Positions 30,467 to 46,674 of a stretch of 64,000 nt of DNA are shown here, piece after piece (positions within the stretch are counted from its first letter, which is position 1; each line of letters opens with the position of its first letter). This DNA is from an uncultured Bdellovibrio sp. Its GTDB lineage: Bacteria > Bdellovibrionota > UBA1018. The stretch is from positions 1,192 through 65,191 of the forward strand of contig CAZBEI010000065.1 in the NCBI GenBank assembly GCA_964490895.1, read 5' to 3'. The position numbers and the translations under genes were made by a program. Below the pieces are notes generated by a model. The model did no database searches. It saw only the letters and a list, made by a program, of their open reading frames with translations, and had not been told where the DNA came from.

Positions 30467-33400
30467 CGCAATTAAAAGAAGAGATTTTCTAAAAGGAATG
30501 GCTTATGTGGGCTCTTGGGGAGTGGCTTCGTCATGGATGCTCTCCCATAAACTCATGGCTGCTCCCATTCGTTACTTTAAACCCACCCACATCGAAAATC
30601 CTCTCGCTTTTTATCCGAATCGAGACTGGGAAAAAGTCTATCGTAATATTTTTGAACCAGACTCCTCTTTTGTTTTTTTATGCGCCCCCAATGACACCCA
30701 CAACTGCCTCCTAAAAGCTTATGTAAAAAATGGAGTCATTATCCGAATTGGACCCAGTTATGGTTATGGAAAAGCAACGGACCTCTATGGCAATCAGGCT
30801 TCTCATCGGTGGGATCCGAGAATTTGTCAAAAGGGGCTCGCTCTTGTTCGCAGAATATATGGAGACCGTAGAGTAAAAGCTCCCATGGTGAGGCGAGGGT
30901 TTAAGCAGTGGGTAGAAGACGGATTTCCAAGAGATCCATTGACTGGAAAACCAGATCCTAAATATTTCGAGCGCGGAAAAGACAAGTGGTTAAGGATCGA
31001 CTGGGAGGGAGCCTATGATTTGTCAGCTCGTACGATTGAGAATATCAGCAAAACTTATTCTGGAGAAAGTGGAGCAAAATTGCTTAAAGCACAAGGATAT
31101 GACCCCAGCATGATTGAGGCAACAGAAGGTGCGGGGACTCAGACTATTAAGCTTCGGGGTGGGATGGCATTCTTGGGTGCAACACGGATTTTTGGGCTTT
31201 ATCGATTTGCCAATATGCTCGCACTCATGGATGCAAAACAGCGTGGAGTTTCGCCTGATCAAGCCATCGGTGCAAGAGGTTGGGACAGTTATAGCTGGCA
31301 CACGGATCTCCCTCCTGGGCATCCCATGGTTACAGGGGCACAGACCAATGACTTTGATCTTTTTTCTACAGAATATTCAAAATTAATCATTGCCTGGGGA
31401 ATGAATTGGATCACCACTAAAATGCCAGACTCCCATTGGCTAACAGAGGCGCGGTTGAAGGGAGCAAAGACTGTTGCTGTAACGGTAGAATACAGTGCTA
31501 CGGGATCAAAGTGTGACGATGTCATTATTATCCGTCCTGGAACAGATCCTGCATTTGCCCTGGGAGTTGCGCAAGTTATTATTTCTAAAAAATTGTATGA
31601 CGAAGACTTTGTGCAAAAAAATACGGATTTACCTTTTTTAATTCGCTTAGACACGCTCCAACCTCTCCGCCCAGAAGAAGTGTTTGCAAACTATAAAGCC
31701 ACTCCTATCGAAACCATGAGCTTTATCAAGAAAGGCGAAAAAACATTACCAGGGAATTTACAAAAAAATCAATTTGCAAATGAGAACATGCAAAAAGATT
31801 TTAGTCCGTACGTTATTTTTGATAAAAAAATAAAAAAATTAGTCCCGGTAACACGAGACCAATGGGGACAGACATTCTCTCAAACCGAAATGAAGCCAGA
31901 CCTAAGAGCCCATCGAAAAATAAAACTCATTAACGGCAATGAAGTCGAAGTCAGAACGGTTTTCCATTTGACAGAGGAATATCTCAATAAAAACTTTACA
32001 CCCAAACTCACCGCTCTTGTCACAGGAACCCCAGAAAAAACCATCGTCAATCTTGCACTGGATATTGCAAAAAATAAGGAAAAAACTCTTTTTGCCTGCG
32101 GAATGGGCCCCAATCAGTTTTTTAACTCAGATCTAAAAGACAGGGCTATTTTTTTAGTGGCTGCTCTGACTCGAAATGTTGGCTTTCCGGGTGGAAACGT
32201 GGGGAGCTATGCCGGAAATTATAGAGCGGCACTTTTTGGAGGGATACCACAATTTGCAACAGAAGATCCCTTTCACCTCCAACTTGAAAAAGGAGGCAAA
32301 ATTACAGTAAAAAAATATCTCCATTATGAGTCACTCCATTATTTTAACTATGGAGACAGACCCTTAAGACTTGGCAACAAACTTTTTACAGGACATGGCC
32401 ACTTGCCCACTCCTACAAAAATGATGTGGTTAAATAACTCTAACTCAGTGATCGGTAACATTAAATGGCATTTCGATGTCGTCAATAATACTCTTCCAAA
32501 GCTAGAGTTTATTGCTTACTCAGATTGGTGGTGGACTGGATCCTGCGAGTACTCAGACATTGTATATGGTGTAGATAGTTGGGCTGAGTTCAAGGTTCCA
32601 GACATGTGTGGCTCTTGCACGAACCCTTTTGTTCAGATTTATCCGAGAACTCCCGTTCCAAGAATTTTTAATACCAAAAGTGATATTGAAGTGATTGCTG
32701 GTGTATCCAAACGATTGGGCGAGATTTTGAACGAACCTCGCATGAAAGACATGTGGAAGTTTGTTTCCGATGGTGACGTCGACGAATATCTGCAGAGAGT
32801 GATTGATCATTCGTTTACGCTAAAAGGATATGACTTTAAAACTCTAGAAAAAAATGCCAAAGAAGGGATTCCAGCTTTACTCAATACAAGGACTTACCCG
32901 AGAGTTTCCTCCTTTGAGCAAGCAAAAAACGAACAACCTTGGCACACAAAATCTGGTCGGCTAGAGTTTTATCGATTCGAATCGGACTTCATTGATAGCG
33001 GAGAAAACATGGTTGTTTACCGAGAGCCCATTGACTCCACTCATTATGAACCTAACGTGATTGTAGCTCATCCTCATACAGCCATTCGGCCAAAAACTCC
33101 AAAAGATTATGGACTCGATCCAAAGGATCTTTCGGTGGAGGCAAGACAGGTCAGAAATGTTCTGAAAACGCCAGAAGAGTTGATTCGATCTCAACATCCG
33201 CTGAAATTAAAATTATACTCTCACGTTTACCACACTCCTAAGTACCGACATGGAGCTCATTCGACCCCTGTCGATACTGATTATACTTCGGTTTGGTTTG
33301 GTCCATTTGGGGACGTGTATCGACACGACAAGAGAATGCCTGCCAACTCTGAAGGCTACGTTGACATCAATCCGCTCGATGCAAAGGCTTTAGGCGTAGA

Positions 33401-33941
33401 AGATGGAGATTATGTCTATATTGACGCTGACCCAGAAGATCGGCCTTTTAGGGGTTGGAAAGAAAATACACTGGAGTACAAAGTCGCACGGCTGCTTTTG
33501 AGAGCTCGTTATTACCCGGGCACACCCCGTGGAATCGCGCGCACTTGGCACAACATGTATGGTGCGACGTTGGGCAGCGTAAAAGCTCACGAAACGAGGC
33601 CAGACGGTTTGGCAAAAAATACTGAAACCAACTATCAGTCTATGTACCGTTATGGGAGCCATCAAAGTGCCACACGAGCATGGCTCAGGCCCACTCTCAT
33701 GACAGAATCCCTTGTCCACAAGGGCATGTTTGGCCAAGGAATTGAAAAGGGTTTTGCTCCTGATATTCATTGCCCAGTGGGTGCTCCCAGAGAAGCTTTT
33801 GTGAAAATCACTAAAGCAGAATTAGGGGGTATGGATGGAAAGGGAATGTGGAGGCCCGCCTCACTTGGCTTCAGACCTACCTACGAAAACAAAGCAATGA
33901 AAGAGTATCTAAAGGGTCATTTCTTAAAGAAAAAATCTTAG
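30459..33941 (+). CDS. Type II DMSO-reductase-family molybdoenzyme alpha subunit, periplasmic nitrate reductase / nitrite oxidoreductase-like (NarG/NxrA-type), Tat-exported
   Basis: Start at MPNAIKRRDFLKG (twin-arginine motif) with RBS GAGGTG; the track ORF begins upstream at 30267. About 1160 aa. The first Fe-S (FS0) motif C-x3-D-x3-C aligns to NarG H-x3-C-x3-C next to YVKNG. The Mo-ligand Asp region TTKMPDSHWLTEARLKGAKTVAV parallels NarG. Confidence 0.85.
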   Translation: MPNAIKRRDFLKGMAYVGSWGVASSWMLSHKLMAAPIRYFKPTHIENPLAFYPNRDWEKVYRNIFEPDSSFVFLCAPNDTHNCLLKAYVKNGVIIRIGPSYGYGKATDLYGNQASHRWDPRICQKGLALVRRIYGDRRVKAPMVRRGFKQWVEDGFPRDPLTGKPDPKYFERGKDKWLRIDWEGAYDLSARTIENISKTYSGESGAKLLKAQGYDPSMIEATEGAGTQTIKLRGGMAFLGATRIFGLYRFANMLALMDAKQRGVSPDQAIGARGWDSYSWHTDLPPGHPMVTGAQTNDFDLFSTEYSKLIIAWGMNWITTKMPDSHWLTEARLKGAKTVAVTVEYSATGSKCDDVIIIRPGTDPAFALGVAQVIISKKLYDEDFVQKNTDLPFLIRLDTLQPLRPEEVFANYKATPIETMSFIKKGEKTLPGNLQKNQFANENMQKDFSPYVIFDKKIKKLVPVTRDQWGQTFSQTEMKPDLRAHRKIKLINGNEVEVRTVFHLTEEYLNKNFTPKLTALVTGTPEKTIVNLALDIAKNKEKTLFACGMGPNQFFNSDLKDRAIFLVAALTRNVGFPGGNVGSYAGNYRAALFGGIPQFATEDPFHLQLEKGGKITVKKYLHYESLHYFNYGDRPLRLGNKLFTGHGHLPTPTKMMWLNNSNSVIGNIKWHFDVVNNTLPKLEFIAYSDWWWTGSCEYSDIVYGVDSWAEFKVPDMCGSCTNPFVQIYPRTPVPRIFNTKSDIEVIAGVSKRLGEILNEPRMKDMWKFVSDGDVDEYLQRVIDHSFTLKGYDFKTLEKNAKEGIPALLNTRTYPRVSSFEQAKNEQPWHTKSGRLEFYRFESDFIDSGENMVVYREPIDSTHYEPNVIVAHPHTAIRPKTPKDYGLDPKDLSVEARQVRNVLKTPEELIRSQHPLKLKLYSHVYHTPKYRHGAHSTPVDTDYTSVWFGPFGDVYRHDKRMPANSEGYVDINPLDAKALGVEDGDYVYIDADPEDRPFRGWKENTLEYKVARLLLRARYYPGTPRGIARTWHNMYGATLGSVKAHETRPDGLAKNTETNYQSMYRYGSHQSATRAWLRPTLMTESLVHKGMFGQGIEKGFAPDIHCPVGAPREAFVKITKAELGGMDGKGMWRPASLGFRPTYENKAMKEYLKGHFLKKKS

Positions 33942-33949
33942 GAGAGTTT

Positions 33950-35080
33950 ATGTCAAAAGTAAAAAATTGGCACTTGGGACGTGAGATGGAATATGTTTAC
34001 GAAGAACATCGCCCCAAAAAACAATGGTCCATAGTATTCGATTTGAATAAATGCATTGCCTGCCAAACTTGTACACTGGCTTGTAAAACCACCTGGACGA
34101 GTGGAAAAGGCCAGGAATACATGTTTTGGAATAATGTCGAAACAAAGCCCTATGGGAGCTATCCACTGGCATGGGATGTGCGAGTTTTAGAAAAACTAGG
34201 TCAACAAGAGTGGGGGAAAAAAGAACCTTATTACGGGAAGACGATTTTTGAGGGAGCCCTGCCGACCGAAAGGGCCGTACACTTTCATCCCAAAGACGAA
34301 GACTGGATGTATCCCAATCAGGGCGAAGATGATTGCTTAGGAAATGTAACAAGGGGTGACTCTATTACTCTTCCGCACGACAAGTGGTTTTTTTATTTAC
34401 CTAGAACTTGTGCTCATTGTACTTATCCCGCTTGTCTCGCTGCATGCCCCAGAAAAGCAATTTATAAAAGAGACGAAGACGGAATTGTTTTGATCGATCA
34501 ATCCAGGTGCAAAGGCTATGGAGAATGCGTTCGAGCCTGCCCATACAAAAAATCAATGTACAACCCTTATACAAGAGTGAGCGAAAAATGTATCGGTTGC
34601 TATCCCGCAGTTGAGAAGGGCTATCAACCCATGTGTGTGCAAAACTGTATTGGGAAAATTAGAATCATGGGGTTTGTAAACCCTCCCTGGAAAGTGAGAG
34701 AGAATAATCCAATTGATTATTTGATTCACAAAAAAGAATTAGCCCTGCCTTACTATCCACAACTGGGATTAGAGCCTAATATCTATTACATCCCACCCAT
34801 CCATGCTGATAAAACATACCTCACTCAAATGTTTGGACCCAATGTCGAACACTCAATAGAACAATATAAAAAAATAAAGAACGACATTACAACACAGGGT
34901 CTTTTGGTTTTGATGGGTAGTACGGATCGAATTATTCATAGTTTTGAAGTTAAAAACAATACGGCCTATGGATATGACGAAAAGGGAGACGAAATTGTCC
35001 ATGTTCCTATCACAGAACCACTTTATGAGAGAGAAAGCTTTGATGCCAAACGTCAGGTTGTCAGGAACAATACGCCCTAA
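33950..35080 (+). CDS. Molybdoenzyme beta subunit (four Fe-S clusters; NarH/NxrB-like)
   Basis: Start at MSKVKNW with RBS GGAGAG. Cys clusters CIACQTCTLAC, CAHCTYPACLAACP, CKGYGECVRACP, CIGCYP..C. Confidence 0.8.
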   Translation: MSKVKNWHLGREMEYVYEEHRPKKQWSIVFDLNKCIACQTCTLACKTTWTSGKGQEYMFWNNVETKPYGSYPLAWDVRVLEKLGQQEWGKKEPYYGKTIFEGALPTERAVHFHPKDEDWMYPNQGEDDCLGNVTRGDSITLPHDKWFFYLPRTCAHCTYPACLAACPRKAIYKRDEDGIVLIDQSRCKGYGECVRACPYKKSMYNPYTRVSEKCIGCYPAVEKGYQPMCVQNCIGKIRIMGFVNPPWKVRENNPIDYLIHKKELALPYYPQLGLEPNIYYIPPIHADKTYLTQMFGPNVEHSIEQYKKIKNDITTQGLLVLMGSTDRIIHSFEVKNNTAYGYDEKGDEIVHVPITEPLYERESFDAKRQVVRNNTP

Positions 35081-35093
35081 CTAAGGAGTAAAC

Positions 35094-35954
35094 ATGAAAA
35101 TAAAAAGAAACTTATTTTTACTTTTTTTTATATTAAATTTATGTCCCTCAATTGATGCAGCCGAACTTATTTCTAAGTTTGTGAAGGCAGACTTCTCCCA
35201 TTTTCCAATGGGCGATGACATCTGGAAGGGAGCACGCGAAGAAACAATTAAACTCATGGCTCAACCCATGGCCATCCCAAGACCCAAAGAAACAAACACA
35301 TCCGAAATTTATGTCAAAACCTTAAATGATGGAAAATGGATTGCCTTTCGAATCAGGTGGAAAGACACAGAGAAAAACGAAGCAGGTAGGTTGGGTCAGT
35401 TTTCGGATGCACTTGCTCTTGAGTTTCCAGTCAAAAGTAACCTTTCTCCACCTCCGATTTTCATGGGTGCCAAAGATAACCCTGTTCATGTTTTTCATTG
35501 GCGCGCTCAGTATCAGGCAGACAAAGAACGCGGAAAACCCACGATGAAGGATCTTTATCCCAATATGAATGTCGACATTTATCCTATGGAATTTCAGGAC
35601 CAAGGCTACCTCATGGGATTAACCGAAGAAAAAAGAGAAGTCTTCTCACATGGGATGGCAGCAGGAAATCCTCAGTCGTACAGAAAAATCCATGGTGTGG
35701 ATGAGATTTTTGCTGAAGGTTTTGGGAGTAGCTCCGTCATTGAAAACGTTGAGTCAATTGCACAGGGGGCTTGGAAAAATAATGAATGGGATCTCGTTTT
35801 GTCTAGATCGCTTAAGCGCGAAAACGGATCTATTTTAGAGTCTGGAAAAGGGAGCTTTGTAGGTTTTGCTGTTTGGCAGGGAGGCAAAGACGAAGTGGGA
35901 TCTAGAAAATCAGTCACCATGAATTGGACACCCCTTAAGATTCAAGCAGAATAG
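35094..35954 (+). CDS. Gamma subunit, EbdC/NxrC-like periplasmic haem-b protein (ethylbenzene-dehydrogenase gamma family)
   Basis: Signal peptide, 286 aa. Conserved FPMGDDIWKGA..W.A.Y pattern of type II gamma subunits. Gene order matches alpha-beta-gamma-delta. Confidence 0.7.
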   Translation: MKIKRNLFLLFFILNLCPSIDAAELISKFVKADFSHFPMGDDIWKGAREETIKLMAQPMAIPRPKETNTSEIYVKTLNDGKWIAFRIRWKDTEKNEAGRLGQFSDALALEFPVKSNLSPPPIFMGAKDNPVHVFHWRAQYQADKERGKPTMKDLYPNMNVDIYPMEFQDQGYLMGLTEEKREVFSHGMAAGNPQSYRKIHGVDEIFAEGFGSSSVIENVESIAQGAWKNNEWDLVLSRSLKRENGSILESGKGSFVGFAVWQGGKDEVGSRKSVTMNWTPLKIQAE

Positions 35955-35965: not shown

Positions 35966-36649
35966 ATGGAAAATAATTTTGCAAATAAAGTCTCACAGTT
36001 TGTCTTGGCTTCACTTATTACGTCTTACCCAGACACAGCTTTTCCCGATCATCTGTCAAAAATATCTCAAACTGAGCTTGATTGTAGTGAACTCATGGCA
36101 ATGCTCCACTCCTATTGCGAAAGCCAAATCAAATTAGATAACCTCAGGTCTGATTATATTGACATTTTTGATCGAGGAAAAAATCTAAACCCTCTTTATG
36201 AAACAGAATATGAGAGAGAGCGAACACAAGTAAAAGCCACAACGCTTTCAGATATTGCTGGATTTTATAAGGCGTTTGGATTTGACTTCGATGGCACAAG
36301 CTATCCAGAAATGGTGGACCATGTGTCTGTTGAGCTTGAGTTTTATGCCTTGTTGCTCATGAAACAAGCTTATCTTGAAGAAAATAAAACGACAGAGGGT
36401 GTGTCCATAACATTAGATGCTAGGAAAAAATTTCTAAAAGATCACTTGGGTCGCTTTGTTGGTTCCATTGCTGAACGGCCAGGGGTCAAAGAAAACCATT
36501 TTTATTCTCGTGTTTTTGATTGGTGTAAAGATTTGATTCAAACAGAATGCCAAGAACTTGGGGTCAAAGTGATTCCAGCCCAGTGGTTTTCAGTATCACA
36601 AAAGCCGCAAGATTCTGGCGAAATGTGCTGCGGGGATCATAAAAATTGA
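35966..36649 (+). CDS. TorD/NarJ-family redox-enzyme maturation chaperone (delta subunit)
   Basis: 227 aa, all-helical. The DIFDRG..YETEYE..EL.FY..L pattern is typical of the NarJ/TorD family. Confidence 0.65.
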   Translation: MENNFANKVSQFVLASLITSYPDTAFPDHLSKISQTELDCSELMAMLHSYCESQIKLDNLRSDYIDIFDRGKNLNPLYETEYERERTQVKATTLSDIAGFYKAFGFDFDGTSYPEMVDHVSVELEFYALLLMKQAYLEENKTTEGVSITLDARKKFLKDHLGRFVGSIAERPGVKENHFYSRVFDWCKDLIQTECQELGVKVIPAQWFSVSQKPQDSGEMCCGDHKN

Positions 36650-37629
36650 CAAAATTACAAGATCCTTTTGATAGGAAATTTTCTTATCTCCGACTTTCTG
36701 TTACAGATGTCTGTAATTTTAGGTGCGTTTATTGCCTCCCCAAGGGCTATCAAAAACCAAAAAAATCTTTTACTCCTTTAACATTAGTTGAAATCAAAAA
36801 TCTCGTGCTCGCATTTTCTGAGCTAGGTATCACCAAAGTGAGGCTGACCGGTGGAGAGCCCACAACAAGACATGACATTGTCGAAATAGCTCGAGTGATT
36901 TCAGAAATCCAAGGAATAAAAAAAATCGCACTGACCACCAATGGTTATCGTTTAAGTGAACTCGTTCCCCACCTTAAAGCAACGGGTCTGTCCTCCCTCA
37001 ATGTCAGTGTGGACAGCTTAGATCCTGAAAATTTTTCTAGTATTACGGGCAAGCCCTTGCTTCATAAAGTTCTCGACGGGATAAGTCGCGCAATTCAAGT
37101 CGGAATAGCATCAGTAAAAATAAACGTAGTTTATTTGAAAAAAATAAATAGCGCAGAACTTGAGCGATTTTTAGACTGGGCCAAAGAAACCCCTGTCGCT
37201 ATTCGCTTTATTGAGCTCATGGAGACTGGAAAAAATAAAGTATTATTTCAATCCCATCACCTCTCATTAGGAGAAATTCAATTTTACCTTTTAAAGTCGG
37301 GCTGGAGTTTAATCCCAAAAGAAACTGACAGTGGGCCCGCCTGGGAGTACTGCCACCCAGAGTATAGGGGTCAAATTGGAGTCATTGCTCCCTACTCAAA
37401 AGATTTTTGCCAGTCTTGCAACCGGCTACGCATTTCTTCTCAAGGCGAACTCAAACTCTGTCTTTTTGGTGAAAAAAATTACTCTTTGCGCCACCTCCTC
37501 CAATCGCAAAAATATAAAGAAGAGCTCAAATCAACAATCCAACATTTGATCTATCAGAAACCCATTTCACATTTCTTACACGAGGGAAAATATGGAAACA
37601 CATGGAATCTATCCTCCATCGGAGGATAA
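36646..37629 (+). CDS. moaA: GTP 3',8-cyclase MoaA (radical SAM)
   Basis: CNFRCVYC radical-SAM motif and a C-terminal CQSCNRLR..G cluster. Confidence 0.85.
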   Translation: MTKLQDPFDRKFSYLRLSVTDVCNFRCVYCLPKGYQKPKKSFTPLTLVEIKNLVLAFSELGITKVRLTGGEPTTRHDIVEIARVISEIQGIKKIALTTNGYRLSELVPHLKATGLSSLNVSVDSLDPENFSSITGKPLLHKVLDGISRAIQVGIASVKINVVYLKKINSAELERFLDWAKETPVAIRFIELMETGKNKVLFQSHHLSLGEIQFYLLKSGWSLIPKETDSGPAWEYCHPEYRGQIGVIAPYSKDFCQSCNRLRISSQGELKLCLFGEKNYSLRHLLQSQKYKEELKSTIQHLIYQKPISHFLHEGKYGNTWNLSSIGG

Positions 37630-38602
37630 CTCTTCGCAAATGGTGGATGTTAGCTCAAAAGACATCACCTTACGCAAAGCGCGTGCAACAGGAAGAATTC
37701 AAGTTTCTCTAGAAATCATAGAAAAAATCAAATCAAACACAATTCCAAAGGGAGATGTTTTTAGAGTGGCAGAAGTCGCTGGCATTCTTGCTGCCAAAAA
37801 AACTCCAGAGATCATCCCCCTTTGCCATCCCATCCTTATTGAGTCTGTTCGAATCCATTGCGAAATAAAAACGCCACATGCGATAGAAGTGACCTCCGAA
37901 GTCATAGCCCAAGCCAAAACAGGTGTTGAAATGGAAGCTTTGGTGGCCGTGCAAGCGGCACTGCTGTGCATTTATGACATGACAAAGGGGCTTTATCCCT
38001 ACGCTACCATCGAAGACGTTCATGTTGTATCTAAAACGGGTGGAAAATCGGAACATTGGCCAAACCCTAAAAACAACACACAACAATTAGATATAAAAGT
38101 TGGGATCCTGACCGTGAGTGACCGTTGTTCAAAAGGCAAACAAGAAGACAAATCCGGAAAAACAATTGAGTGTTTTTTTACTGAAACAAACTCTACTCTC
38201 ATCGGGAGTCTCATCGTACCAGACGATGTGGGCAAAATTCAAAGTGCCATCAAAAATTTAGCATTTGAGGAAAAAGCAGACCTCATTATCACAACAGGTG
38301 GGACTGGACTCGGCCCTCGAGATCAAACTCCTTTAGCGCTACAGACGCTTTGGACAAAGCCCTTGCCAGGAGTTGGAGAACTCTTAAGGAGTAAAGGTTC
38401 GCTACACACTCCACTTTCTTGGCTGAGCCAAATGGAGGCTGGATTGATCGAAAATACCCTGGTGGTCTCCCTACCAGGCAGCCCAAAGGCTGTAAAAGAG
38501 TCCCTAGATATTTTGAGCCCCTTACTGGTGCATATTTTTGACATGATTCGCGGAGAGAATCATGAAGGTAAAATGATTCGCGGAGAGAATCATGAAACTT
38601 AA
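37592..38602 (+). CDS. moaC: Bifunctional MoaC (cyclic pyranopterin monophosphate synthase) and MogA/MoaB-like molybdopterin adenylyltransferase fusion
   Basis: N-terminal half has MVDVSSKDITLRKARA..EIIPLCHP (MoaC). C-terminal half has GILTVSDR..IITTGGTGLGPRD (MogA/MoaB). Confidence 0.75.
   Translation: METHGIYPPSEDNSSQMVDVSSKDITLRKARATGRIQVSLEIIEKIKSNTIPKGDVFRVAEVAGILAAKKTPEIIPLCHPILIESVRIHCEIKTPHAIEVTSEVIAQAKTGVEMEALVAVQAALLCIYDMTKGLYPYATIEDVHVVSKTGGKSEHWPNPKNNTQQLDIKVGILTVSDRCSKGKQEDKSGKTIECFFTETNSTLIGSLIVPDDVGKIQSAIKNLAFEEKADLIITTGGTGLGPRDQTPLALQTLWTKPLPGVGELLRSKGSLHTPLSWLSQMEAGLIENTLVVSLPGSPKAVKESLDILSPLLVHIFDMIRGENHEGKMIRGENHET
38543..38602. repeat. 30-bp tandem duplication (atgattcgcggagagaatcatgaa + 6 nt) at the moaC-mogA / transporter junction
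   Basis: Two adjacent 30-bp units with 26/30 identity. Each carries GGAGAG-N4-ATG. The first gives the mini-ORF MKVK; the second is the transporter start. Confidence 0.8.
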
Positions 38603-39683
38603 ATGGCTATCCAATCAATTTCTTGGAGCCTTTTCTGACGGAGCGATTTTGATTCCTATGATCGCTGTGCTCTCTGCAAAGTCTGGATATAATATTAAAA
38701 CTCTACTCTTCAGTGCAGGGATTATTTATTGTGTGAGTGGAGCTTATTTTAAAATCCCAATGGCTGTGCAACCTCTAAAATCACTGGTGATCACGGCTCT
38801 TGCAATTCAAGCAAGTCTCACCGAAATTAGGCTAGTGGGAGCATTGATTGGACTACTTTGCCTGTTTTTGACTCTCTTTGATGCCAATGCACTTGCTAAA
38901 AAAGTACCCATTGAGCTGATACACGGGCTCCAAGTAGCATTGGGTGTTTTACTTATTTTACAAGGGTTTAGAGCTATCCACACAGAAGTGCTTGTTGTTT
39001 TAGTTGTTTTAGTTATTATTTACTATTTCTTCGAATTTCCGATTTTAGGCGTATTGGCTTGCCTTGGAATTTTATTCTCTTTCACACGCACACTACCCAT
39101 CCCTGGCAGCACAATCAATATAAACGGAAGTGAGTTTAGATTTTCAGTTATTATTTCACTTTTACTTCCGCAAATAATTCTGACACTCAGCAATTCAGTC
39201 ATTGGAACGTATCACGTTTCACAGTACTATTTTCCAAAAGGGGCAAGCAAAGTAACTCCCAAACGACTTTTAACTTCGATTGGGATTGGAAACATTTTGA
39301 CAGCCTTATTTGCGGGTCTCCCCTTTTGTCATGGCTCTGGTGGAATTACGGCACATTACTTGGGTGGAGCCAGACATTACATTTCAAACTTTATTGTAGG
39401 CTTTTTTCTAATTGGAGTATTCATTTTTCTCCAATTTTCTAAAAATTATTTTACCTTTCACTATCCTCCCATTCTTTTGTCAAGCTTGCTCATATCAGTA
39501 GGAGTTTTTCATATCAAATTAGCAAAAGAGACTTGGATTAAAAAAGAAAATGGCAAACCAACCCTCATGCTGATGGCTCTTACTGCACTGACAACACAAA
39601 ACTTACTCTACGCACTGGGGATTGGAATATTTCTAGAACTCATCAGTAAACGGATCTATAAATTGACAGGAGCACGCTCATGA
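38592..39683 (+). CDS. Polytopic membrane transporter embedded in the Moco cluster (possible molybdate/sulfate-family permease)
   Basis: 363 aa, about 10 TM helices. Position between mogA and moeA suggests molybdate uptake; family not securely identified. Confidence 0.5.
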   Translation: MKLKWLSNQFLGAFSDGAILIPMIAVLSAKSGYNIKTLLFSAGIIYCVSGAYFKIPMAVQPLKSLVITALAIQASLTEIRLVGALIGLLCLFLTLFDANALAKKVPIELIHGLQVALGVLLILQGFRAIHTEVLVVLVVLVIIYYFFEFPILGVLACLGILFSFTRTLPIPGSTININGSEFRFSVIISLLLPQIILTLSNSVIGTYHVSQYYFPKGASKVTPKRLLTSIGIGNILTALFAGLPFCHGSGGITAHYLGGARHYISNFIVGFFLIGVFIFLQFSKNYFTFHYPPILLSSLLISVGVFHIKLAKETWIKKENGKPTLMLMALTALTTQNLLYALGIGIFLELISKRIYKLTGARS

Positions 39684-40939
39684 TCACTTATGCACAAGCT
39701 TTAGAGATCATCTATGAAGCTGGAAATAAAAAAATATTAGGAACAGAAAAAATTTCAATAGAACTATCCATCGGAAGAGTCTTAGCGGAATCCATTTATA
39801 GCCCAGAGGATCTGCCAGGATTTGACAACTCAGCGATGGATGGTTTTTGTGTTGTCTCAAAAGAGACTCTCACCGCAAGTCAAGCTCACCCCATTGAGCT
39901 TTCAATTTTAGATACAATTGCAGCAGGGGACTCCAAGAAATTTGATCCAAGCACATTGGCTGAAAATCTTATCTGCTTCGAAATCATGACCGGAGCTCCT
40001 CTTCCTCATACGCAGTTTGATGCAGTGGTTAAGGTAGAAGATGTAAAGCGGTTGGGAAATAAAATCATATTGACCCGACCCATTCTCAGCAAAGAAAATG
40101 TTCGACATCAAGGTTCCGATACTCAGATGGGAACTTTAATCCTTGGATCTGGGACTCCACTCTCGCACCAACACTTACTCATGCTCGCAGCACTGGGCAT
40201 AAGCGAAGTTTCTGTATTTAAAAAGCTAAAACTAGCCCTTATTTCAACTGGAAAAGAACTGGCTCATTATACCGAAAAGGAGTTAAAACCAGGACAAATT
40301 AGAAATTCTACAGCGCCCTATTTATTGAGCCTACTAAACTCTCTGGGGTTTAACGTGACCTATATAGGAAACATCCAAGATGATCCGGGTTACTTCAAAA
40401 AAAAATGTGACAAAATTATTTTTGATGATTTTGATATTCTTCTTACAACGGGTGCTGTCTCTGTAGGGAAATTTGATTTCATCAAAGAAGTATTAACTCA
40501 AATGAAGACAGAAATTCTATTTCACAAATCTGCTATTCGACCTGGCAAGCCTATTCTGTTTGGCGAATTTTGCCACCTTGCCAGTCATCACTCTGTGTTT
40601 TTTGGGATGCCTGGAAATCCAATCTCAACGGCAGTTGGGGTGAGGTTTTTTTTAATTCCCTACCTGCGTTGTATCACAAAACAACCCATGGAGGCGCCTC
40701 TTTTGATTGAGCTTGAAAACGAAGTGAGAAAACCCAAAGACCTGCGCTGTTTTTATAAAGCTAAACTCACTATTGTCTCCTCAAAAGCTAAGGTGACTGT
40801 TTTACCTGGACAGGCCTCGTTTATGGTCAGCCCACTCTTAGAGTCAAGCGCTTGGGCTGTTCTTCCAGATAGCAAAGAGGTGTTCGAGCCTGGAGAAAAA
40901 ATCGATGTTTATCCATTATTACCCCAAACCTATTTTTAA
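39680..40939 (+). CDS. moeA: Molybdopterin molybdotransferase MoeA
   Basis: 419 aa. PGFDNSAMDGFCV and GGVSVG blocks. Confidence 0.85.
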   Translation: MITYAQALEIIYEAGNKKILGTEKISIELSIGRVLAESIYSPEDLPGFDNSAMDGFCVVSKETLTASQAHPIELSILDTIAAGDSKKFDPSTLAENLICFEIMTGAPLPHTQFDAVVKVEDVKRLGNKIILTRPILSKENVRHQGSDTQMGTLILGSGTPLSHQHLLMLAALGISEVSVFKKLKLALISTGKELAHYTEKELKPGQIRNSTAPYLLSLLNSLGFNVTYIGNIQDDPGYFKKKCDKIIFDDFDILLTTGAVSVGKFDFIKEVLTQMKTEILFHKSAIRPGKPILFGEFCHLASHHSVFFGMPGNPISTAVGVRFFLIPYLRCITKQPMEAPLLIELENEVRKPKDLRCFYKAKLTIVSSKAKVTVLPGQASFMVSPLLESSAWAVLPDSKEVFEPGEKIDVYPLLPQTYF

Positions 40940-40959
40940 ATTAAGCCAAGGAAAATAAA

Positions 40960-41226
40960 ATGATTAAAATAAAATTTCAATTTTTTGGTCTGTTAAAAAA
41001 GCAAATTCCAGCTCCTTTTATCGAAATGGAAGTCGAAGAAGGAATAAAACTAAACCAACTCGTCACAAGGCTTCTCAATGTATTAAAAAACGAAGGACAC
41101 TGCTTACTCAATATCTCTACTCTTGACGAGTGCGCTATTGCCAACGAATCAAGAGTACTAGATAAAAATGAAGCAATCCATGAGAGCTGCACTCTTTCAC
41201 TTTTGCCGCCAGTTTGTGGAGGTTAA
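40960..41226 (+). CDS. moaD: Molybdopterin synthase sulfur-carrier subunit MoaD-like
   Basis: 88 aa ending in Gly-Gly (VCGG). Confidence 0.65.
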   Translation: MIKIKFQFFGLLKKQIPAPFIEMEVEEGIKLNQLVTRLLNVLKNEGHCLLNISTLDECAIANESRVLDKNEAIHESCTLSLLPPVCGG

Positions 41227-41273
41227 GTATTTTGTTTAAATATAAAATAAAAATAACAAAAAAGCCGATAGAA

Positions 41274-41732
41274 ATGAGTAAAATCCTAGAGGAACTTCAA
41301 GACCCACGGAGTGGGGCCTCGACGCTCTTTGTTGGCTCTGTTCGCAATCAGAATCTCGGGCGAGTTGTAAAATCCGTTCACTACGAAGCTTTTGTTCCAC
41401 TTGCACTTAAAACCCTTGTTTTGATTTGTAAAAATGCAAAAAAACAGTTTAGCCCCAATAAAGAACTTCTTAAAATCGCCATCGTTCATCGGTTAGGAAA
41501 ACTCAGTGTTGGTGAAATGAGTGTCGCAATTGGCGTGGCAACGAAACATCGCGACGAGTCGTACAAAATATCGAGATTCATTATTGAAGAACTAAAAAAA
41601 CAGGTCCCCATTTGGAAAAAAGAACATTATGTAGACGGAGAAAGCGAGTGGCTTAAAGGACATGCACTTTGCAACAAAAACCATCGGCGTCGTGCTCATG
41701 GGCGGTCAATCGAGCAGAATGAAGTCTCCTAA
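41274..41732 (+). CDS. moaE: Molybdopterin synthase catalytic subunit MoaE
   Basis: Start taken at MSKILEEL; the track ORF starts at 41214. GASTLFVGSVRN and VAIGVATKHR blocks. Confidence 0.7.
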   Translation: MSKILEELQDPRSGASTLFVGSVRNQNLGRVVKSVHYEAFVPLALKTLVLICKNAKKQFSPNKELLKIAIVHRLGKLSVGEMSVAIGVATKHRDESYKISRFIIEELKKQVPIWKKEHYVDGESEWLKGHALCNKNHRRRAHGRSIEQNEVS

Positions 41733-42270
41733 GGAGGATCTCATCTTTCAAGGAAAAAAATGGATTGACCACCAACTCAGCACTCTTACAAAGACCCTCA
41801 AAGGGATTCCATCCTTTGTCGTTGTCAGTGGCAAACCAAAAGGCTACCCCTCAGTCAAAGATATCAAAAAAAACCTGGGACCGCTGGGTGGGATATATTC
41901 TGTGCTCAGAAATTTTTACCCTATTCTAAAGAATAGCTCTATTCTCTTTATTCCAATTGACATGCCATTTCTTTCCGAAAAATCACTCAAAAAATTAATT
42001 CAAGCTCCTGTGACTCAAAATATTGATTACATAGGTTTTAAATCATACGAACTTCCTTTTTTATTAAAAATATCTGAAAAAACAGTCAAATTGGCACAGT
42101 CCTTTTGTGATGACTCAATCTGCTCTCGCGATCGCTCGATCAAAAAATTTCTGGCGTGTTTGAATTCGCGTATCATTGGTGTTCCAAAACAACTGCAGTT
42201 TGAGTTCTGCAATATCAACACTCCCGAGGAATGGAAGCTACTTTATGAACATTCGATTATCTCCGAATGA
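41662..42270 (+). CDS. mobA: Molybdenum cofactor guanylyltransferase MobA
   Basis: N-terminal GVVLMGGQSSRM nucleotide-binding motif. Confidence 0.7.
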   Translation: MHFATKTIGVVLMGGQSSRMKSPKEDLIFQGKKWIDHQLSTLTKTLKGIPSFVVVSGKPKGYPSVKDIKKNLGPLGGIYSVLRNFYPILKNSSILFIPIDMPFLSEKSLKKLIQAPVTQNIDYIGFKSYELPFLLKISEKTVKLAQSFCDDSICSRDRSIKKFLACLNSRIIGVPKQLQFEFCNINTPEEWKLLYEHSIISE

Positions 42271-42619
42271 AATTCGATTTCGTTTTAAAAAAAATGAGCT
42301 TGAGAATCTATTAAAAACAGAAAAAATCGAAGAGACTCTCTTCTTTTCCAGAGAAATGGGTTTTAGTTACTGTGTTTTAATGAAACGAAATATTTCAGAA
42401 ATGGAGCTTTGTTTGTACCCCAATCAATTTGTATTGCATATCCATCCTCATCAGATAGAAACGTTATTAAACCAAGATCTAAGAAAAAACTCAGGTCTGT
42501 TTCAGGAAATTTATAGGGACGAAACAAATGTGTTAAAACTAAAAGTCGAGATTGATTTAGATCCTCACCCTTTTTCGAGGGGGCCTTTCCAGGCCGAAAA
42601 GCCGCCCTCAAGCGAATAG
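42245..42619 (+). CDS. Hypothetical small protein at the end of the Moco operon
   Basis: About 124 aa from MNIRLSPN. No recognised domain. Its 3' end overlaps the convergent moeB by 55 bp. Confidence 0.3.
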   Translation: MNIRLSPNEIRFRFKKNELENLLKTEKIEETLFFSREMGFSYCVLMKRNISEMELCLYPNQFVLHIHPHQIETLLNQDLRKNSGLFQEIYRDETNVLKLKVEIDLDPHPFSRGPFQAEKPPSSE

Positions 42620-43668
42620 ACATCTAGAATTCCCTTATTTTTTATGTCTAAAACAAGTTTTTTTGAGCTATTCCCTACTCCACAATAAAAGACATATTTT
42701 TTACCTAAATAGTGTATATTTTTAAGTTGCTCGTCATTGAGACAGAGAGACCCTGGGATACGACCCAACTTCCATTCGAGAGGACTTCTGAGATCAATCA
42801 AGACCAGGTGTTCTGTTTGCATGAGTGCAGTCAATTCTTTTTGTGCCAGTTCAAGGTTTTGAGTCTGAAATACCTCCAAAGGACTCTGCATTTTGCTTTG
42901 ACCTATATTTTGAAAAGAACAAGTCGTACAATTTGAATTTTTTTGAGTTTTAAAAATTGAAAAATTCATAGTTTGAGTGTCCATCACAAGAAGCTTATTT
43001 AATAATAATTCAAAAGGTGCTGGAGGACTGTCTTGAGACAAAATCCATTTTAAAGTTTCCAGGGCTAGTATAGATCCTAGGATACCTGCCACAGGACCTA
43101 AAATTCCAGTTTCAGAGCAATTAGGGACCCCTTCCTTTGGAGGCTCTGGGTAAAGACAACGGTAACAATTTCCTTTTCCGCCTCCTTTTTCTGGCCAAAA
43201 CAGCGACGCTCTCACCTCAAATTGGGAGAGAGCGCCGAAAACCCAAGGGGTATTCATTTTTGTGCAATAGTCATTGATTAAATATTTAGTGTCAAAGTTA
43301 TCTGTGCCATCAATAACAATATCATAACCAGAAAAGACATCCGCTACATTTTGTGAACTCAGCAAGTCCGGGTAAGTTTGAATTTCGACTTTAGAGTTGA
43401 GTTGAGTGAGTTTTTCTTTTGCAACCTCAGTTTTTAATTCTCCCTGATCTGATTCAGAATATAAAACTTGTCGATTTAAGTTTGATCTATCCACACGATC
43501 AAAATCTACTAGACCTATTTTTCCAATACCTGCTGCAACTAAATATTGAGATGCGGGCACGCCTAAGCCACCCACCCCAACACAAAGTACTTTAGCTTTC
43601 GAAATTTTTTCCTGGCCTTTTTCTCCTACCTCTTTGAGTAGAATTTGTTTTATGTAGCGCTGATCCAT
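42565..43668 (-). CDS. moeB: MoeB/ThiF-type adenylyltransferase with C-terminal rhodanese domain (MoeZ-like)
   Basis: GVGGLGVPASQYLVAAGIG nucleotide-binding fold, CxxC pairs, and a C-terminal rhodanese-like region with active-site Cys (YCGVGN). Confidence 0.75.
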   Translation of the reverse strand: MDQRYIKQILLKEVGEKGQEKISKAKVLCVGVGGLGVPASQYLVAAGIGKIGLVDFDRVDRSNLNRQVLYSESDQGELKTEVAKEKLTQLNSKVEIQTYPDLLSSQNVADVFSGYDIVIDGTDNFDTKYLINDYCTKMNTPWVFGALSQFEVRASLFWPEKGGGKGNCYRCLYPEPPKEGVPNCSETGILGPVAGILGSILALETLKWILSQDSPPAPFELLLNKLLVMDTQTMNFSIFKTQKNSNCTTCSFQNIGQSKMQSPLEVFQTQNLELAQKELTALMQTEHLVLIDLRSPLEWKLGRIPGSLCLNDEQLKNIHYLGKKYVFYCGVGNSSKKLVLDIKNKGILDVYSLEGGFSAWKGPLEKG

Positions 43669-43674: not shown

Positions 43675-45132
43675 TCAGCTTGTCTGGCCGCTTAAATAAG
43701 AAATTACATGGTGTGCCGTGTAAGATTGCTGTCCATGGGGAAGAAATTGCTTTAACTGAAGCAAATCATCCCCTGCAGTAAGAAGAGGTAGCTCTTGATA
43801 ACCATTTTTTTGAATTTGCCCAAGTCCGATGTTTGACATGAGTGCATTACACAAGCACTTCCGACCGACGGTGTCTTCGATCTTGCCGCCCTTGTGAACA
43901 TAGTCGTCAATAGGTTCTGCCGGGCAGCGATAGATCATACTTCCATCTGGACGATTTACGATTTGCCTGAGATAGCCGAGATCACACTTCCGAGAACGTG
44001 CTTGATACAAAGCACTTTCTGACAACGTCCCTTCTAGTGGAGCAATCTTAAACGGAAACCCCGTGGGTGATGCAAAAGGATCAGTAAAGACAGCCTCGGG
44101 TTTGGTAGGATTATTAAAACACCACTTTTCGATCACTGCTTTTCGTAAATGCTCCGACAAACCCGACTCGTTGCAAAACGCAAATGCGGTGCCAACCTGT
44201 ATGCCAGTTGCACCGACACTGAGCGCTTGCTGGAGTTTATCTGGAGATCCAAATGATCCTGCAAGCCAGAATGGAAGACCGATCTTTCGAATTGCCTCCA
44301 AGTCAGCTTCGTCCTTTGCACTGTAAATGGGTTCACCTCGTTCATTGAGTTGCAGAGGTCCTCTAGGTGGGGCGTTATGTCCTCCCGCCAAAGGACCTTC
44401 GATTATGAAACCATCTACCTTACCTGTAGATTTTCGAGCCAGATGTAGAGCTAGTGTAGCTGACGAAATAATCGCTAAAAACTTTGGCCTTATTAAGGAA
44501 GACCGAGCCATTTTTGGAAATACGTGCATCGGATCAAAGCTGATTCGAATGTCTGTGTCAGGATTAGACTCGGCAACTACGATCTTAATCGAGGCTTCAT
44601 TTTGCTCTGAAAATCTGTCCAAGACGCCAGGAATTTCGCGAGGAACACCTGCTCCCATGAGTACGTAATCTACCCCAGCAAGCATTGCACCATAGATACC
44701 AGGAAGATTCGAAGTTTGAAGTTTTTCTAGAAAGTTGATCCCAATAACTCCGTCGTGGCCTTCTTTTGCGAGAAAAACTTCAACAAAACTAGCAACCACA
44801 CTCAACTGCTGTAAAAAAAGAGGTGCACTCACCGAAGGAAGTGGGATCCTCTTATAGCCTTTTCCAAGAGAGCGGCCATTTTGCAGCCAAAAAGAGGAAA
44901 GAACCTGTTCGATAAGAACGCCATCAGGAAAGTGAGCAAGTGCCCGCCGCACGTGTCCTTCGGCGTCACTATCTTGAAGTCTGCGGATCAAAATCGTATT
45001 GATGCCTGTCCCAGATACCACTCCCAGTTGTCCGAGCGTAGAGACGGCCTTTGCTAGTCTCCAATCAGATACTCCGACACCCATGCCTCCTTGAATAATC
45101 AGCGGTAGACTCATATCCTTCCCATAACACAT
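43675..45132 (-). CDS. Nitronate monooxygenase / 2-nitropropane dioxygenase family flavoprotein (long form)
   Basis: N-terminal IIQGGMGVGVS motif and a TIM-barrel FMN-binding pattern. 485 aa. Confidence 0.7.
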   Translation of the reverse strand: MCYGKDMSLPLIIQGGMGVGVSDWRLAKAVSTLGQLGVVSGTGINTILIRRLQDSDAEGHVRRALAHFPDGVLIEQVLSSFWLQNGRSLGKGYKRIPLPSVSAPLFLQQLSVVASFVEVFLAKEGHDGVIGINFLEKLQTSNLPGIYGAMLAGVDYVLMGAGVPREIPGVLDRFSEQNEASIKIVVAESNPDTDIRISFDPMHVFPKMARSSLIRPKFLAIISSATLALHLARKSTGKVDGFIIEGPLAGGHNAPPRGPLQLNERGEPIYSAKDEADLEAIRKIGLPFWLAGSFGSPDKLQQALSVGATGIQVGTAFAFCNESGLSEHLRKAVIEKWCFNNPTKPEAVFTDPFASPTGFPFKIAPLEGTLSESALYQARSRKCDLGYLRQIVNRPDGSMIYRCPAEPIDDYVHKGGKIEDTVGRKCLCNALMSNIGLGQIQKNGYQELPLLTAGDDLLQLKQFLPHGQQSYTAHHVISYLSGQTS

Positions 45133-45252
45133 TTTTACCCACTCAAGGGTTCAAAATTGAGAGATTCCACCATCCCGCGGATGCTGAAATTTGGGTTTGG
45201 TTTTCCGAAGGAGCCGAGCCTAGCCATCGCTAAAACTGAAAAACATTAGTAG

Positions 45253-45627
45253 TCAAGCACAGCATGAAGGCTCTTCTGCTGAAGCACTTTGCCCAGATAC
45301 CGCTTCTTTATATGCTTTAAATGCTTTAATAGCCCACATTTCACCCACACAGCCACCCATAGTAGAGGCAATAGCTAAAAACTCACCAAGTTCTATTTCT
45401 GTAGTGCCAACTGCTACTGCGCGATGGATATAGTATTTAAAACATGGCTCACATCGAGCCGAGATAGCCCAAACCATCGCAGTGAGAATTTTAAATTTCT
45501 GAGGTACCTCACCATCTGAAAAGATTGCCTTCTTCCTCATTTGATCAATCAGTGCTGGGATTCCACTTGTGATTTTAGAAAAGTCCTTCATTAAGTTTAA
45601 GGCAGGATCAATTTTATTATAATCCAT
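45253..45627 (-). CDS. Carboxymuconolactone decarboxylase (CMD/AhpD-like) family protein
   Basis: 124 aa. CEPC redox motif. Last gene of the mer-like operon. Confidence 0.65.
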   Translation of the reverse strand: MDYNKIDPALNLMKDFSKITSGIPALIDQMRKKAIFSDGEVPQKFKILTAMVWAISARCEPCFKYYIHRAVAVGTTEIELGEFLAIASTMGGCVGEMWAIKAFKAYKEAVSGQSASAEEPSCCA

Positions 45628-45637
45628 AAGTCCTCCA

Positions 45638-45931
45638 TTAGTTTTCTATTTTTTTGCATTCTTGAGACGTTGCTTTATATCCCACATCGTTAATTGCTTT
45701 CTTAATAGCTTCTGCATTCGTTTGTGCGGGATCAAATTGAACAACTGCATTTTTCTTTTCAACAAAGACTTTGGCTACTTCAACGCCCTTAATCTTCTTC
45801 ACGGCAGCTTTCACCGTGATGCCACAGGTAGCGCAGGTCATCCCTTGTACATTATAACAAGCCTGCTCTGCCCTGGCTAAGCTTGCTACGTTGAGCATGC
45901 TTATAAAAACCAAGTATATTATTTTTCTCAT
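45638..45931 (-). CDS. merP: Periplasmic heavy-metal-binding protein, MerP-like (signal peptide + HMA domain)
   Basis: Start at MRKIIYLVF with RBS AAGGAGGGAG. GMTCATCGITV metal-binding loop. The track ORF extends upstream to 46012. Confidence 0.65.
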   Translation of the reverse strand: MRKIIYLVFISMLNVASLARAEQACYNVQGMTCATCGITVKAAVKKIKGVEVAKVFVEKKNAVVQFDPAQTNAEAIKKAINDVGYKATSQECKKIEN

Positions 45932-45942
45932 TTCTCCCTCCT

Positions 45943-46299
45943 TTAGGAAAAAAACCAGACAACCCACTGTGGGGAGGTTATTCCCAAGACAGCAACTGAA
46001 ACTCCAATCCAATAAAATATAACCATCTTTCTATATTTTTTGGGATCGGCACAAATGGACCCTGGTTCACAACTGTTACGTCTTCGATAAAGTGTAAAAC
46101 CAGCAACTCCAAAAAGCACTAAGACTAAAATTAACATGGGTACGCGGATCACATCAAATTTTGCCAGAGCTGCTGCACCAGATACTCCAAGAATTGTCAA
46201 AATGAGAGGACCTACACAACATAAAGGGACTAGCATAGAAGCAATAATTCCAGTTGTCACAAGCCATCCAGATTTATTTCCGACTTTGCTCTTGTTCAT
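45943..46299 (-). CDS. merT: MerT-like metal transport membrane protein
   Basis: TM1 Cys pair LVPLCCVGPL and cytoplasmic loop Cys pair SCEPGSIC as in MerT. About 118 aa from MNKSKVG. Confidence 0.6.
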   Translation of the reverse strand: MNKSKVGNKSGWLVTTGIIASMLVPLCCVGPLILTILGVSGAAALAKFDVIRVPMLILVLVLFGVAGFTLYRRRNSCEPGSICADPKKYRKMVIFYWIGVSVAVLGITSPQWVVWFFS

Positions 46300-46568
46300 C
46301 TCGTTCCAACTCCCGCTGCTCGCAGTTCCTTTTCGCTCACGGTACCACTTATACAGCAATCAAGAAGTCTACCGTCTACAACGATAGCAGGAACTTTTGT
46401 AATGCCATATTTTTTTGCTTTATCTCTACACTCATTGGTGGCACATCCAGCATTAAGGTCGTAGATTACGACATTGCATGATGAACATGCTATTTTTTTA
46501 ACTAGGGCCACAACGGGCTCACAAACCGGACAGCCAGAAGTGAAAACCTCAATTTTTCTATTAGCCAT
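46296..46568 (-). CDS. Thioredoxin/glutaredoxin-like small redox protein
   Basis: 90 aa. N-terminal CPVC motif. First gene after the merR-divergent promoter. Confidence 0.55.
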   Translation of the reverse strand: MANRKIEVFTSGCPVCEPVVALVKKIACSSCNVVIYDLNAGCATNECRDKAKKYGITKVPAIVVDGRLLDCCISGTVSEKELRAAGVGTR

Positions 46569-46674
46569 AATTTAGGACTCCTTCTATCATCAGCTTAACC
46601 CCTATACCCAAGTATAGGGTCAATAGAAATTATTTTCTTGGCCTTGTACCTATATATAGGGTTAGAATATAAGC

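Follow-up and report, generated by a model that had tools for sequence, protein, structure and literature searches.

Gene clusters for the biosynthesis of the molybdenum cofactor (Moco) are routinely found beside molybdoenzyme operons. The expression of moa operons, molybdate transporters and Moco enzymes is regulated by a class of Moco riboswitches (PMC2408646). A gene of the Pfam family PF16983 has already been described inside a Moco locus of Caldithrix abyssi (PMC5317091), and MOT1-like SulP proteins have been recorded in sulfate reducers (PMC5840216). A comparative-genomics survey of molybdenum utilisation, published in 2018, listed MOT1 in eukaryotes only and counted 278 molybdenum-using bacteria without a known transporter (PMC6147048). 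In plants, MOT1.2 directly binds the molybdenum insertase Cnx1, a MogA-MoeA fusion (PMC9147641). Here, we describe a Moco gene cluster that includes a permease of family PF16983, located in a stretch of 64,000 nucleotides from contig CAZBEI010000065.1 of an uncultured Bdellovibrio sp.; this whole stretch is called the window below. In our view, the region is probably a Moco cassette of the kind typical of its lineage, in a Bdellovibrionota-like bacterium, and follows directly on an operon for a periplasmic nitrite oxidoreductase (NXR)-type enzyme, be it a nitrite oxidoreductase or a nitrate reductase. The cluster is a well-preserved example of its kind, and its transporter family and both of its gene fusions are already known. 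Three features deserve attention: the prokaryotic MOT1 permease, a small protein of the DUF7009 family and the apparent loss of a riboswitch.

Results

Gene content of the cassette

Gene identities were settled by Pfam and NCBIfam profile searches, and the catalytic or signature motifs are intact in every named gene of the cassette. The first gene, moaA (36646–37629, plus strand, like all those that follow up to DUF7009), encodes a radical SAM GTP 3',8-cyclase (TIGR02666, 332 bits; cutoff 284) with the motifs CNFRCVYC and CxxCx13C and a C-terminal GG. The next one (37592–38602) fuses moaC, for cyclic pyranopterin monophosphate (cPMP) synthase, to a moaB (mogA-like) domain of the molybdopterin adenylyltransferase type (NF002947, 351 bits, cutoff 285; PF01967 plus PF00994); the fusion protein keeps the DMTK, TGGTG and PGSP motifs, and fusions of the same type occur at four of the related loci described below (L001, L002, L004 and L009). 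It is followed by the gene of the PF16983 permease (38592–39683; 102 bits, cutoff 30), a predicted molybdate importer of the MOT1 family with an SLC26 fold and without a STAS domain, and by moeA (39680–40939), encoding a molybdenum insertase with MoeA_N, MoCF_biosynth and MoeA_C domains and a PGNP motif. The two subunits of molybdopterin (MPT) synthase come next. The small sulfur-carrier subunit MoaD (40960–41226) scores 22.2 bits with ThiS, just under the cutoff of 22.5, and matches TIGR01682 with E = 4.6e-6; it ends in CGG, and moaD homologues hold the same position in relatives. The large subunit MoaE (41214–41732) matches PF02391 with 104 bits, and since this profile begins at residue 14 of the open reading frame (ORF) that opens with TTG, the moaE start must lie upstream of 41253.

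A divergent mobA-like gene for a Moco guanylyltransferase (41662–42270; NTP_transf_3, 71 bits) carries the motifs GGQSSRM and DMPF. Its best NCBIfam match is MobA itself (TIGR02665), over the full length and with E = 4.7e-14, although the score of 52.8 bits does not reach the cutoff of 151.85; MocA is an alternative, but a weaker one. We rejected a truncated or pseudogenised mobA or moeA, as the mobA product aligns end to end with the MobA structure 3ngw and the moeA product aligns over its full length with the MoeA structures 1uz5 and 1fc5. The last gene on the plus strand encodes a small DUF7009 protein (42245–42619; PF22668, 50.8 bits, cutoff 27; 102 bits with a family hidden Markov model (HMM)). 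Convergent with the cassette, a moeB-rhodanese fusion (42565–43668, minus strand; ThiF 254 bits, Rhodanese 56 bits) encodes a MoaD adenylyltransferase/sulfurtransferase that retains GVGGLG, two CxxC motifs and the rhodanese motif CGVGNS. The convergent orientation of moeB is also seen at loci L001, L019, L020, L024, L025 and L028. Both fusions are of catalogued types, the MoaC/MoaB type of NF002947 and a MoeB-rhodanese of the MoeZ/MOCS3 type.

A preliminary description of this DNA, made from the letters and their ORFs, had already named eight of these genes and the two fusions. All eight were recovered at the same places as full-length family members, neither mobA nor moeA turned out to be a fragment, and only the DUF7009 gene between mobA and moeB had been overlooked. 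The same description held that all junctions are overlaps or gaps of less than 50 bp. This is true for the 4-nt overlap of nxrD and moaA (TTGA, in which the nxrD TGA stop overlaps the moaA TTG start), the 38-nt overlap of moaA and moaC (or 10-nt gap, if moaC starts at 37640), the 11-nt overlap of the moaC/moaB fusion with the permease gene, the 4-nt overlap of the latter with moeA, the 20-nt gap between moeA and moaD and the 13-nt overlap of moaD and moaE. The overlaps are larger between moaE and mobA (71 nt) and at the convergent 3' ends (55 nt).

We also noticed a tandem duplication at 38543–38596 (plus strand), made of two identical 24-mers with a period of 30 nt, so that the permease gene has its ATG and its Shine-Dalgarno-like GGAGAG in duplicate. 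The first copy opens a mini-ORF of four codons (MKVK*), and the MoaC/MoaB fusion gains two copies of MIRGENHE at its C-terminus through the duplication.

The gene set supports the view, also taken in the preliminary description, that the cluster encodes all dedicated steps from GTP to bis-molybdopterin guanine dinucleotide (bis-MGD) and would thus be a self-contained bis-MGD cassette. MoaA, with both Fe-S motifs and its GG end, and the MoaC domain would convert GTP to cPMP. MoaD, with its GG end, and MoaE would turn cPMP into MPT, MoaD being recharged by the MoeB fusion with its sulfur-transfer domain. The PF00994 domain, with TGGTG and PGSP in place, is predicted to adenylate MPT. The permease would carry molybdate across the inner membrane, the three-domain MoeA would insert the metal and MobA would make bis-MGD, which the NarJ-like chaperone NxrD, encoded immediately upstream, may load into apo-NxrA ahead of Tat export.

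Distribution of the cassette in relatives

The genome scan covered one genome per species. We defined relatives by a permease homologue carrying CHGSGG[IVL]TA, which is present in 253 genomes, and took locus counts from the best 80 of the species-level loci with a MOT1 homologue. At 56 of these 80 loci, one or more Moco biosynthesis genes lie within 8 kb of the MOT1 homologue. The exact order moaC/B-MOT1-moeA is found at 22, mostly in metagenome-assembled genomes (MAGs) of the Bdellovibrionota type, and 17 of the 22 have a nitrate/nitrite-type molybdoenzyme or a NarK-like transporter beside them. The contigs of the closest homologues share the whole block of moaA, moaC/B, MOT1, moeA, moaD, moaE, mobA, DUF7009 and moeB. 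The neighbouring enzyme varies: it is Nas/Nap-like, with an HPP protein, at L001, an NXR-like operon at L002 (Pseudobdellovibrio sp.) and NarK/NarG at L004. An NXR-like operon stands directly upstream of the cassette at 10 to 12 of the 80 loci, counted among those 22, with NxrA proteins 61–85% identical; the MAGs concerned are labelled Oligoflexia, Bacteriovoracaceae, Pseudobdellovibrionaceae or Bdellovibrionales, and L050 only 'delta proteobacterium'. The cassette is thus a conserved block of diverged sequence, carried by many Bdellovibrionota-type genomes next to differing nitrate/nitrite enzymes.

The upstream NXR-type operon

The four genes that precede moaA form an operon of the type II DMSO-reductase family, as identified by profile searches. 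The catalytic subunit, a bis-MGD enzyme, is encoded by an nxrA-like gene (30459–33941, plus strand) whose ORF as listed begins at TTG 30267. We place the start most likely at 30459, judging from the Tat signal and from the 1159-aa homologue at L002; from there the protein begins with the twin-arginine signal MPNAIKRRDFLKG, with the Tat motif RRDFL. In a phmmer search of the PDB, NxrA matches subunit A of the Kuenenia NXR (7b04_B) over its full length with E = 2e-274 and 917 bits; the next-best matches, perchlorate reductase and NarG, reach at most 180 bits. In the Kuenenia protein, the ligands of the FS0 iron-sulfur cluster are C67, D71 and C75, the substrate Asn is residue 70 and the molybdenum ligand is Asp275 (PMC8387239). 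The window protein shows the same pattern, with C75-x3-D79-x3-C83, N78 preceding D79, and D283 in WHTD.

The other subunits are an nxrB-like iron-sulfur protein (33848–35080, plus strand; Fer4_11 101 bits, TIGR03478 DMSO_red_II_bet 264 bits), 78% identical to its homologue at L002 and L018 and probably starting downstream of 33848, an nxrC-like haem b subunit of the EB_dh family (35094–35954, plus strand; PF09459 95 bits, TIGR03477) and NxrD (35966–36649, plus strand; PF02613 60 bits, TIGR03482), a cofactor-insertion chaperone of the NarJ/TorD type that the preliminary description called the delta subunit. All the marks of a periplasmic NXR-type enzyme are therefore present: a Tat signal, a three-Cys/one-Asp FS0 site with its preceding Asn, an Asp molybdenum ligand, a beta subunit, an EB_dh-type gamma subunit and a NarJ-like delta protein. 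Because NxrA matches the Kuenenia subunit with the same FS0 and molybdenum ligands, we take the client of the cassette to be a periplasmic enzyme of the NXR type that requires bis-MGD.

Directly upstream of nxrA, a Cys/His-rich ORF of 269 aa (29657–30466) has no Pfam or NCBIfam match. Its homologues occupy the same position at L002 (32% identity) and L040 (35%), and it may be an accessory protein or regulator associated with NXR. At L040 (4396–6037), only an internal fragment of NxrA (residues 551–734, 82% identity) lies between the homologue of this ORF and moaA; either the nxr operon has decayed there or the assembly is at fault.

Absence of the Moco riboswitch from the window

Sixteen cassettes of relatives were scanned for the Moco riboswitch (Rfam RF01055). 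A full-length copy lies immediately upstream of moaA in six of the eight stand-alone cassettes, and seven of the eight nxr-linked cassettes have one between nxrD and moaA, giving 13 of 16 in total. The presence of RF01055 ahead of moaA therefore places the permease of these relatives in a Moco-responsive operon. By contrast, an Rfam scan of the window detected RF01055 neither at the gathering score nor at E<=1; no family at all reached the gathering score, and the single match at E<=1 was a spurious, sub-threshold rli47. With no riboswitch, and with the nxrD stop overlapping the moaA start, the cassette seems to depend on the nxr operon for its expression. At L028, too, nxrD and moaA are close, only about 45 nt apart. 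The cassette of most relatives would thus be a separate unit gated by the riboswitch before moaA, whereas in this genome the riboswitch has apparently been lost and replaced by the nxrD/moaA overlap, which joins the cassette to the nxr operon. Molybdenum uptake and cofactor synthesis would then probably be expressed together with the enzyme that uses the cofactor. The preliminary description spoke of a cassette fused to the enzyme operon, and the missing riboswitch, together with the joining of the cassette to the nxr operon, is the sole respect in which such a fusion is peculiar to this sequence. Loss of the riboswitch together with fusion to the client operon would provide a natural example of regulatory rewiring.

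The embedded permease

The permease has 363 aa and matches PF16983, named MFS_MOT1 in Pfam, in two stretches (102.3 bits). The same family is carried by all 120 homologues among the matches listed, some of which are named 'molybdate transporter family protein' or 'putative sulfate/molybdate transporter' at NCBI and 'SulP family sulfate permease' at JGI; RefSeq plasmid records also use 'putative sulfate/molybdate transporter' for PF16983 homologues. Two signatures were defined for eukaryotic MOT1, PxPVQPMKx(I/L)(A/G)AxA and FGxMPxCHG(S/A)GGLAxQ(Y/H)xFG(A/G)RxG (PMC10385300). Their cores are kept here as P56..VQPLK (59–63) and PFCHGSGG (244–251; CHGSGG at 246–251), followed by Y256..GAR261, and both VQPLK and CHGSGG are invariant or nearly so across 68 homologues.

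A sequence search of the PDB gave no match for the permease at E<=1. An AlphaFold (AF2) model built from 68 sequences (pLDDT 91, pTM 0.89) is entirely membrane domain, and Foldseek returned as top match the transmembrane (TM) domain of SLC26Dg (5iof_A; E = 5.6e-10, TM-score 0.72), with further matches to the membrane domains of BicA, prestin, AtSULTR4;1 and UraA. The secondary structure of the model consists of two repeats of seven elements, each with a short strand and then a half-helix that bears one of the conserved motifs. By analogy with the known SLC26/UraA architecture, these motif-bearing elements would be the TM3 and TM10 of the substrate site. According to the model, the protein is thus a permease of the SLC26/SulP fold with 14 membrane segments (7+7) and without a STAS domain. 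A transporter of the MFS type, as implied by the Pfam name, was rejected on the same basis.

The preliminary description had seen ten membrane segments and an uncharacterised family; the first count gives way to the 14 of the model and the second statement to the known, already named MOT1 family. The proposal that the protein is a candidate molybdate importer fares better, as the MOT1 profile match and the place of the gene inside the Moco cluster make it a good candidate by predicted function. The searches pointed to no unrelated substrate family for it and, as no gene of the cassette is a fragment either, the core of the preliminary description stands. Its position between the mogA-like and moeA genes also parallels the binding of plant MOT1.2 to Cnx1. 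In relatives further afield, distant MOT1 homologues stand next to a ModE-like HTH+TOBE regulator in Terriglobia and to a stand-alone MoeA_C protein (L005, 7463–9233, and L007, 7659–9155). These neighbours are independent genomic links of the permease family to molybdenum.

The DUF7009 protein

The DUF7009 gene overlaps its neighbours on both sides, mobA at the end of the latter and the convergent moeB at its 3' end. In Moco cassettes, members of this family nearly always come straight after mobA. A word-indexed search with this protein returned only itself, a full HMMER scan gave seven weak matches and a profile search collected 35 members, in which R11 and R13 are invariant. Among the 80 MOT1-anchored loci, 20 have a DUF7009 gene directly after mobA on the same strand, usually overlapping the mobA stop. 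It follows mobA at L001, L002, L004 and also at L009 (Thermomonas alba), where it precedes narK-narG; L011 lacks mobA and has DUF7009 directly after moeA. We found neither literature on this family nor an informative structural relative or fold match. As a hypothesis only, DUF7009 could be a partner of MobA, its gene taking the place that mobB has in Escherichia coli. In any case, it is a conserved and so far unstudied member of the cassette.

Genes flanking the operon and the cassette

The upstream flank contains genes for cytochrome c oxidase, tyrosine catabolism and a LysR regulator, and the downstream flank contains mer-like and Cus-like metal genes. Immediately beyond moeB, merT-like, merP-like (HMA), CMD/AhpD-like and NMO-like genes occupy 43675–47088 on the minus strand, with a divergent merR-family gene. 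Only 6 nt separate the start of the moeB-rhodanese gene from the stop of the NMO-like gene; moeB is probably co-transcribed with the latter, and may be with the metal-related genes of this run, rather than with the cassette. A heavy-metal RND efflux system of the Cus/Czc type (AcrB-family pump, HlyD_D23 adaptor with HMBD, outer-membrane factor) and a MerC-HMA fusion are encoded at 47263–53122 and 2040–2858. Metal-handling genes abound on the contig. Two ORFs (27302–29510; 251 and 480 aa) located between the LysR gene and the nxr region have signal-peptide-like N-termini and no family match. Two runs of ORFs of 234–532 aa without a Pfam match lie at 53228–56108 and 56984–61152.

Discussion

In the preliminary description, the cassette and the nxr operon were read as a genomic island gained by horizontal transfer, with which hosts that lack Moco are supplied. 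The block is indeed functionally self-contained and, in relatives, the cassette is nearly always found beside what may be the sole local molybdoenzyme (NXR-like, Nas-like or NarK/NarG). We also found cassettes of a similar kind in a few gammaproteobacterial (Natronospira, Wenzhouxiangella), alphaproteobacterial and Myxococcota genomes, and the Thermomonas cassette has DUF7009 without the permease. Two carriers of related cassettes, Natronospira elongata AB-CW1 (L036) and Thermomonas alba, are isolates. Between genomes, NxrA and NxrB are 73–85% identical, against 30–57% for the Moco proteins, and in the Pseudobdellovibrio MAG (L002, 15179–15847) a phage-type integrase gene directly follows moeB at the end of the block, the only mobility marker seen beside any copy of the cassette. 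The window itself gives the island reading no support. Its GC content is flat (0.39–0.44), and the tetranucleotide usage of the module correlates with that of the whole window at 0.96–0.97, among the highest values there. A tRNA scan of the window found none, and a Pfam scan identified no integrase or transposase among 67 ORFs of about 125 aa or longer. At L019, too, the cassette has a homologue of the flanking NMO-like gene in its vicinity (68% identity), and the plasmid database yielded only distant permease homologues (25–30% identity, on megaplasmids) and no close nxrA. That the cassette proteins have diverged deeply while the gene order is conserved fits a long vertical residence. We therefore consider recent transfer into hosts without Moco unlikely; such an arrangement is standard in Bdellovibrio-like bacteria, and it is neither newly invented nor demonstrably a mobile island.

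Another question is whether the permease serves Moco synthesis at all, or instead transports a different oxyanion (sulfate, tungstate, selenate or nitrite) or removes surplus molybdate from the cell. Its fold is shared with carriers of sulfate, bicarbonate and other anions, many sources label its homologues 'SulP family sulfate permease', and several consensus positions differ from those of eukaryotic MOT1. Moreover, tungstate blocks the MOT1 of Chlamydomonas (PMC10385300), so that discrimination between tungsten and molybdenum is not assured. However, the protein matches the MOT1 profile and not that of Sulfate_transp, and it has no STAS domain. Its gene is steadily found between those for MPT adenylation and molybdenum insertion, lies downstream of Moco riboswitches in relatives and, in unrelated lineages, has ModE-like and MoeA_C neighbours. 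Import of nitrite or nitrate would also be unneeded, as the client molybdoenzyme has a periplasmic active site, and relatives carry separate NarK or HPP transporters. A different substrate, or export, thus seems to us unlikely, and a role in molybdate import for the Moco cassette is the reading that we retain.

Several observations nevertheless weigh against our interpretation of the region. MobA, MoaD, MoaE and MoeA all score below the NCBIfam equivalog cutoffs and are therefore divergent. The permease matches the eukaryotic MOT1 signatures at only 7 of 11 and 12 of 19 positions, with for instance H255 in place of Q (TAH versus LAxQ); its substitutions are common to the whole bacterial clade. 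We found no report of a transport assay for a bacterial PF16983 protein in the literature searched, and for this reason specificity for molybdate, tungstate or sulfate can only be inferred, here from family and genomic context. Scans for consensus promoters and terminators stayed at chance level, so that co-transcription is suggested by the gene overlaps only. Finally, a view of 64 kb of the genome means that modABC or a second set of Moco genes may exist elsewhere.

It is tempting to combine these results into a broader scenario, which we offer as a tentative possibility with the odds rather against it. In this scenario, a single secondary permease of the MOT1 type, and not ModABC, would be the dedicated molybdate supply for Moco synthesis in Bdellovibrionota and some other bacteria. 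DUF7009, translationally coupled to mobA, would be a new accessory factor for the final step of MGD formation or cofactor delivery, filling the place of MobB, and this genome would have swapped riboswitch control for coupling to the NXR-type operon. Independently of this scenario, prokaryotic MOT1-type permeases are widespread, being present in 253 species-level genomes, and are linked to Moco genes and riboswitches; they could fill part of the transporter gap noted in the 2018 survey (PMC6147048). In addition, Bdellovibrionota-type genomes repeatedly combine NXR-type enzymes with a cofactor supply dedicated to them, which bears on how nxr marker genes are read in metagenomes.

The client enzyme resembles the periplasmic NXR of Kuenenia stuttgartiensis and Nitrospira (7b04) in its full-length NxrA with the three-Cys/one-Asp FS0 site, the substrate Asn and the Asp molybdenum ligand, in NxrB and in the EB_dh-type NxrC. 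It differs from them by its occurrence in a Bdellovibrionota-like genome, where it could work as a nitrite oxidoreductase or as a nitrate reductase. With the eukaryotic MOT1 proteins (Chlamydomonas MOT1, Arabidopsis MOT1.1 and MOT1.2), the permease shares the Pfam family PF16983, the lack of a STAS domain and the cores VQP(L/M)K and PxCHG(S)GG...Y..G(A)R. A link to the molybdenum-insertion step is also common to both, through the binding of MOT1.2 to Cnx1 in plants and through the gene position between mogA-like and moeA here. The window permease is bacterial and shorter (363 aa), and several consensus positions are replaced.

The Moco locus of Caldithrix abyssi (Cabys_2007–2011; PMC5317091) is alike in that its PF16983 gene, Cabys_2008, stands with moaA, moaC and moeA and, as in the relatives of the window, has a Moco riboswitch upstream. 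Caldithrix belongs to another phylum and has a MOSC-domain protein, and mobA, DUF7009 and moeB were not described there, whereas the window cassette has no riboswitch and is joined to the nxr operon. The E. coli system (moaABCDE, mogA, moeAB, mobAB and modABC) follows the same enzymology step for step, and the Moco riboswitch class found in the relatives of the window is also present on its moaA (PMC2408646). However, the Moco genes that are scattered in E. coli form one block in the window. This block has MoaC fused to a MoaB/MogA domain and MoeB fused to a rhodanese, lacks MobB, with DUF7009 taking the place after mobA, and includes a single predicted secondary permease in place of the ABC importer ModABC.

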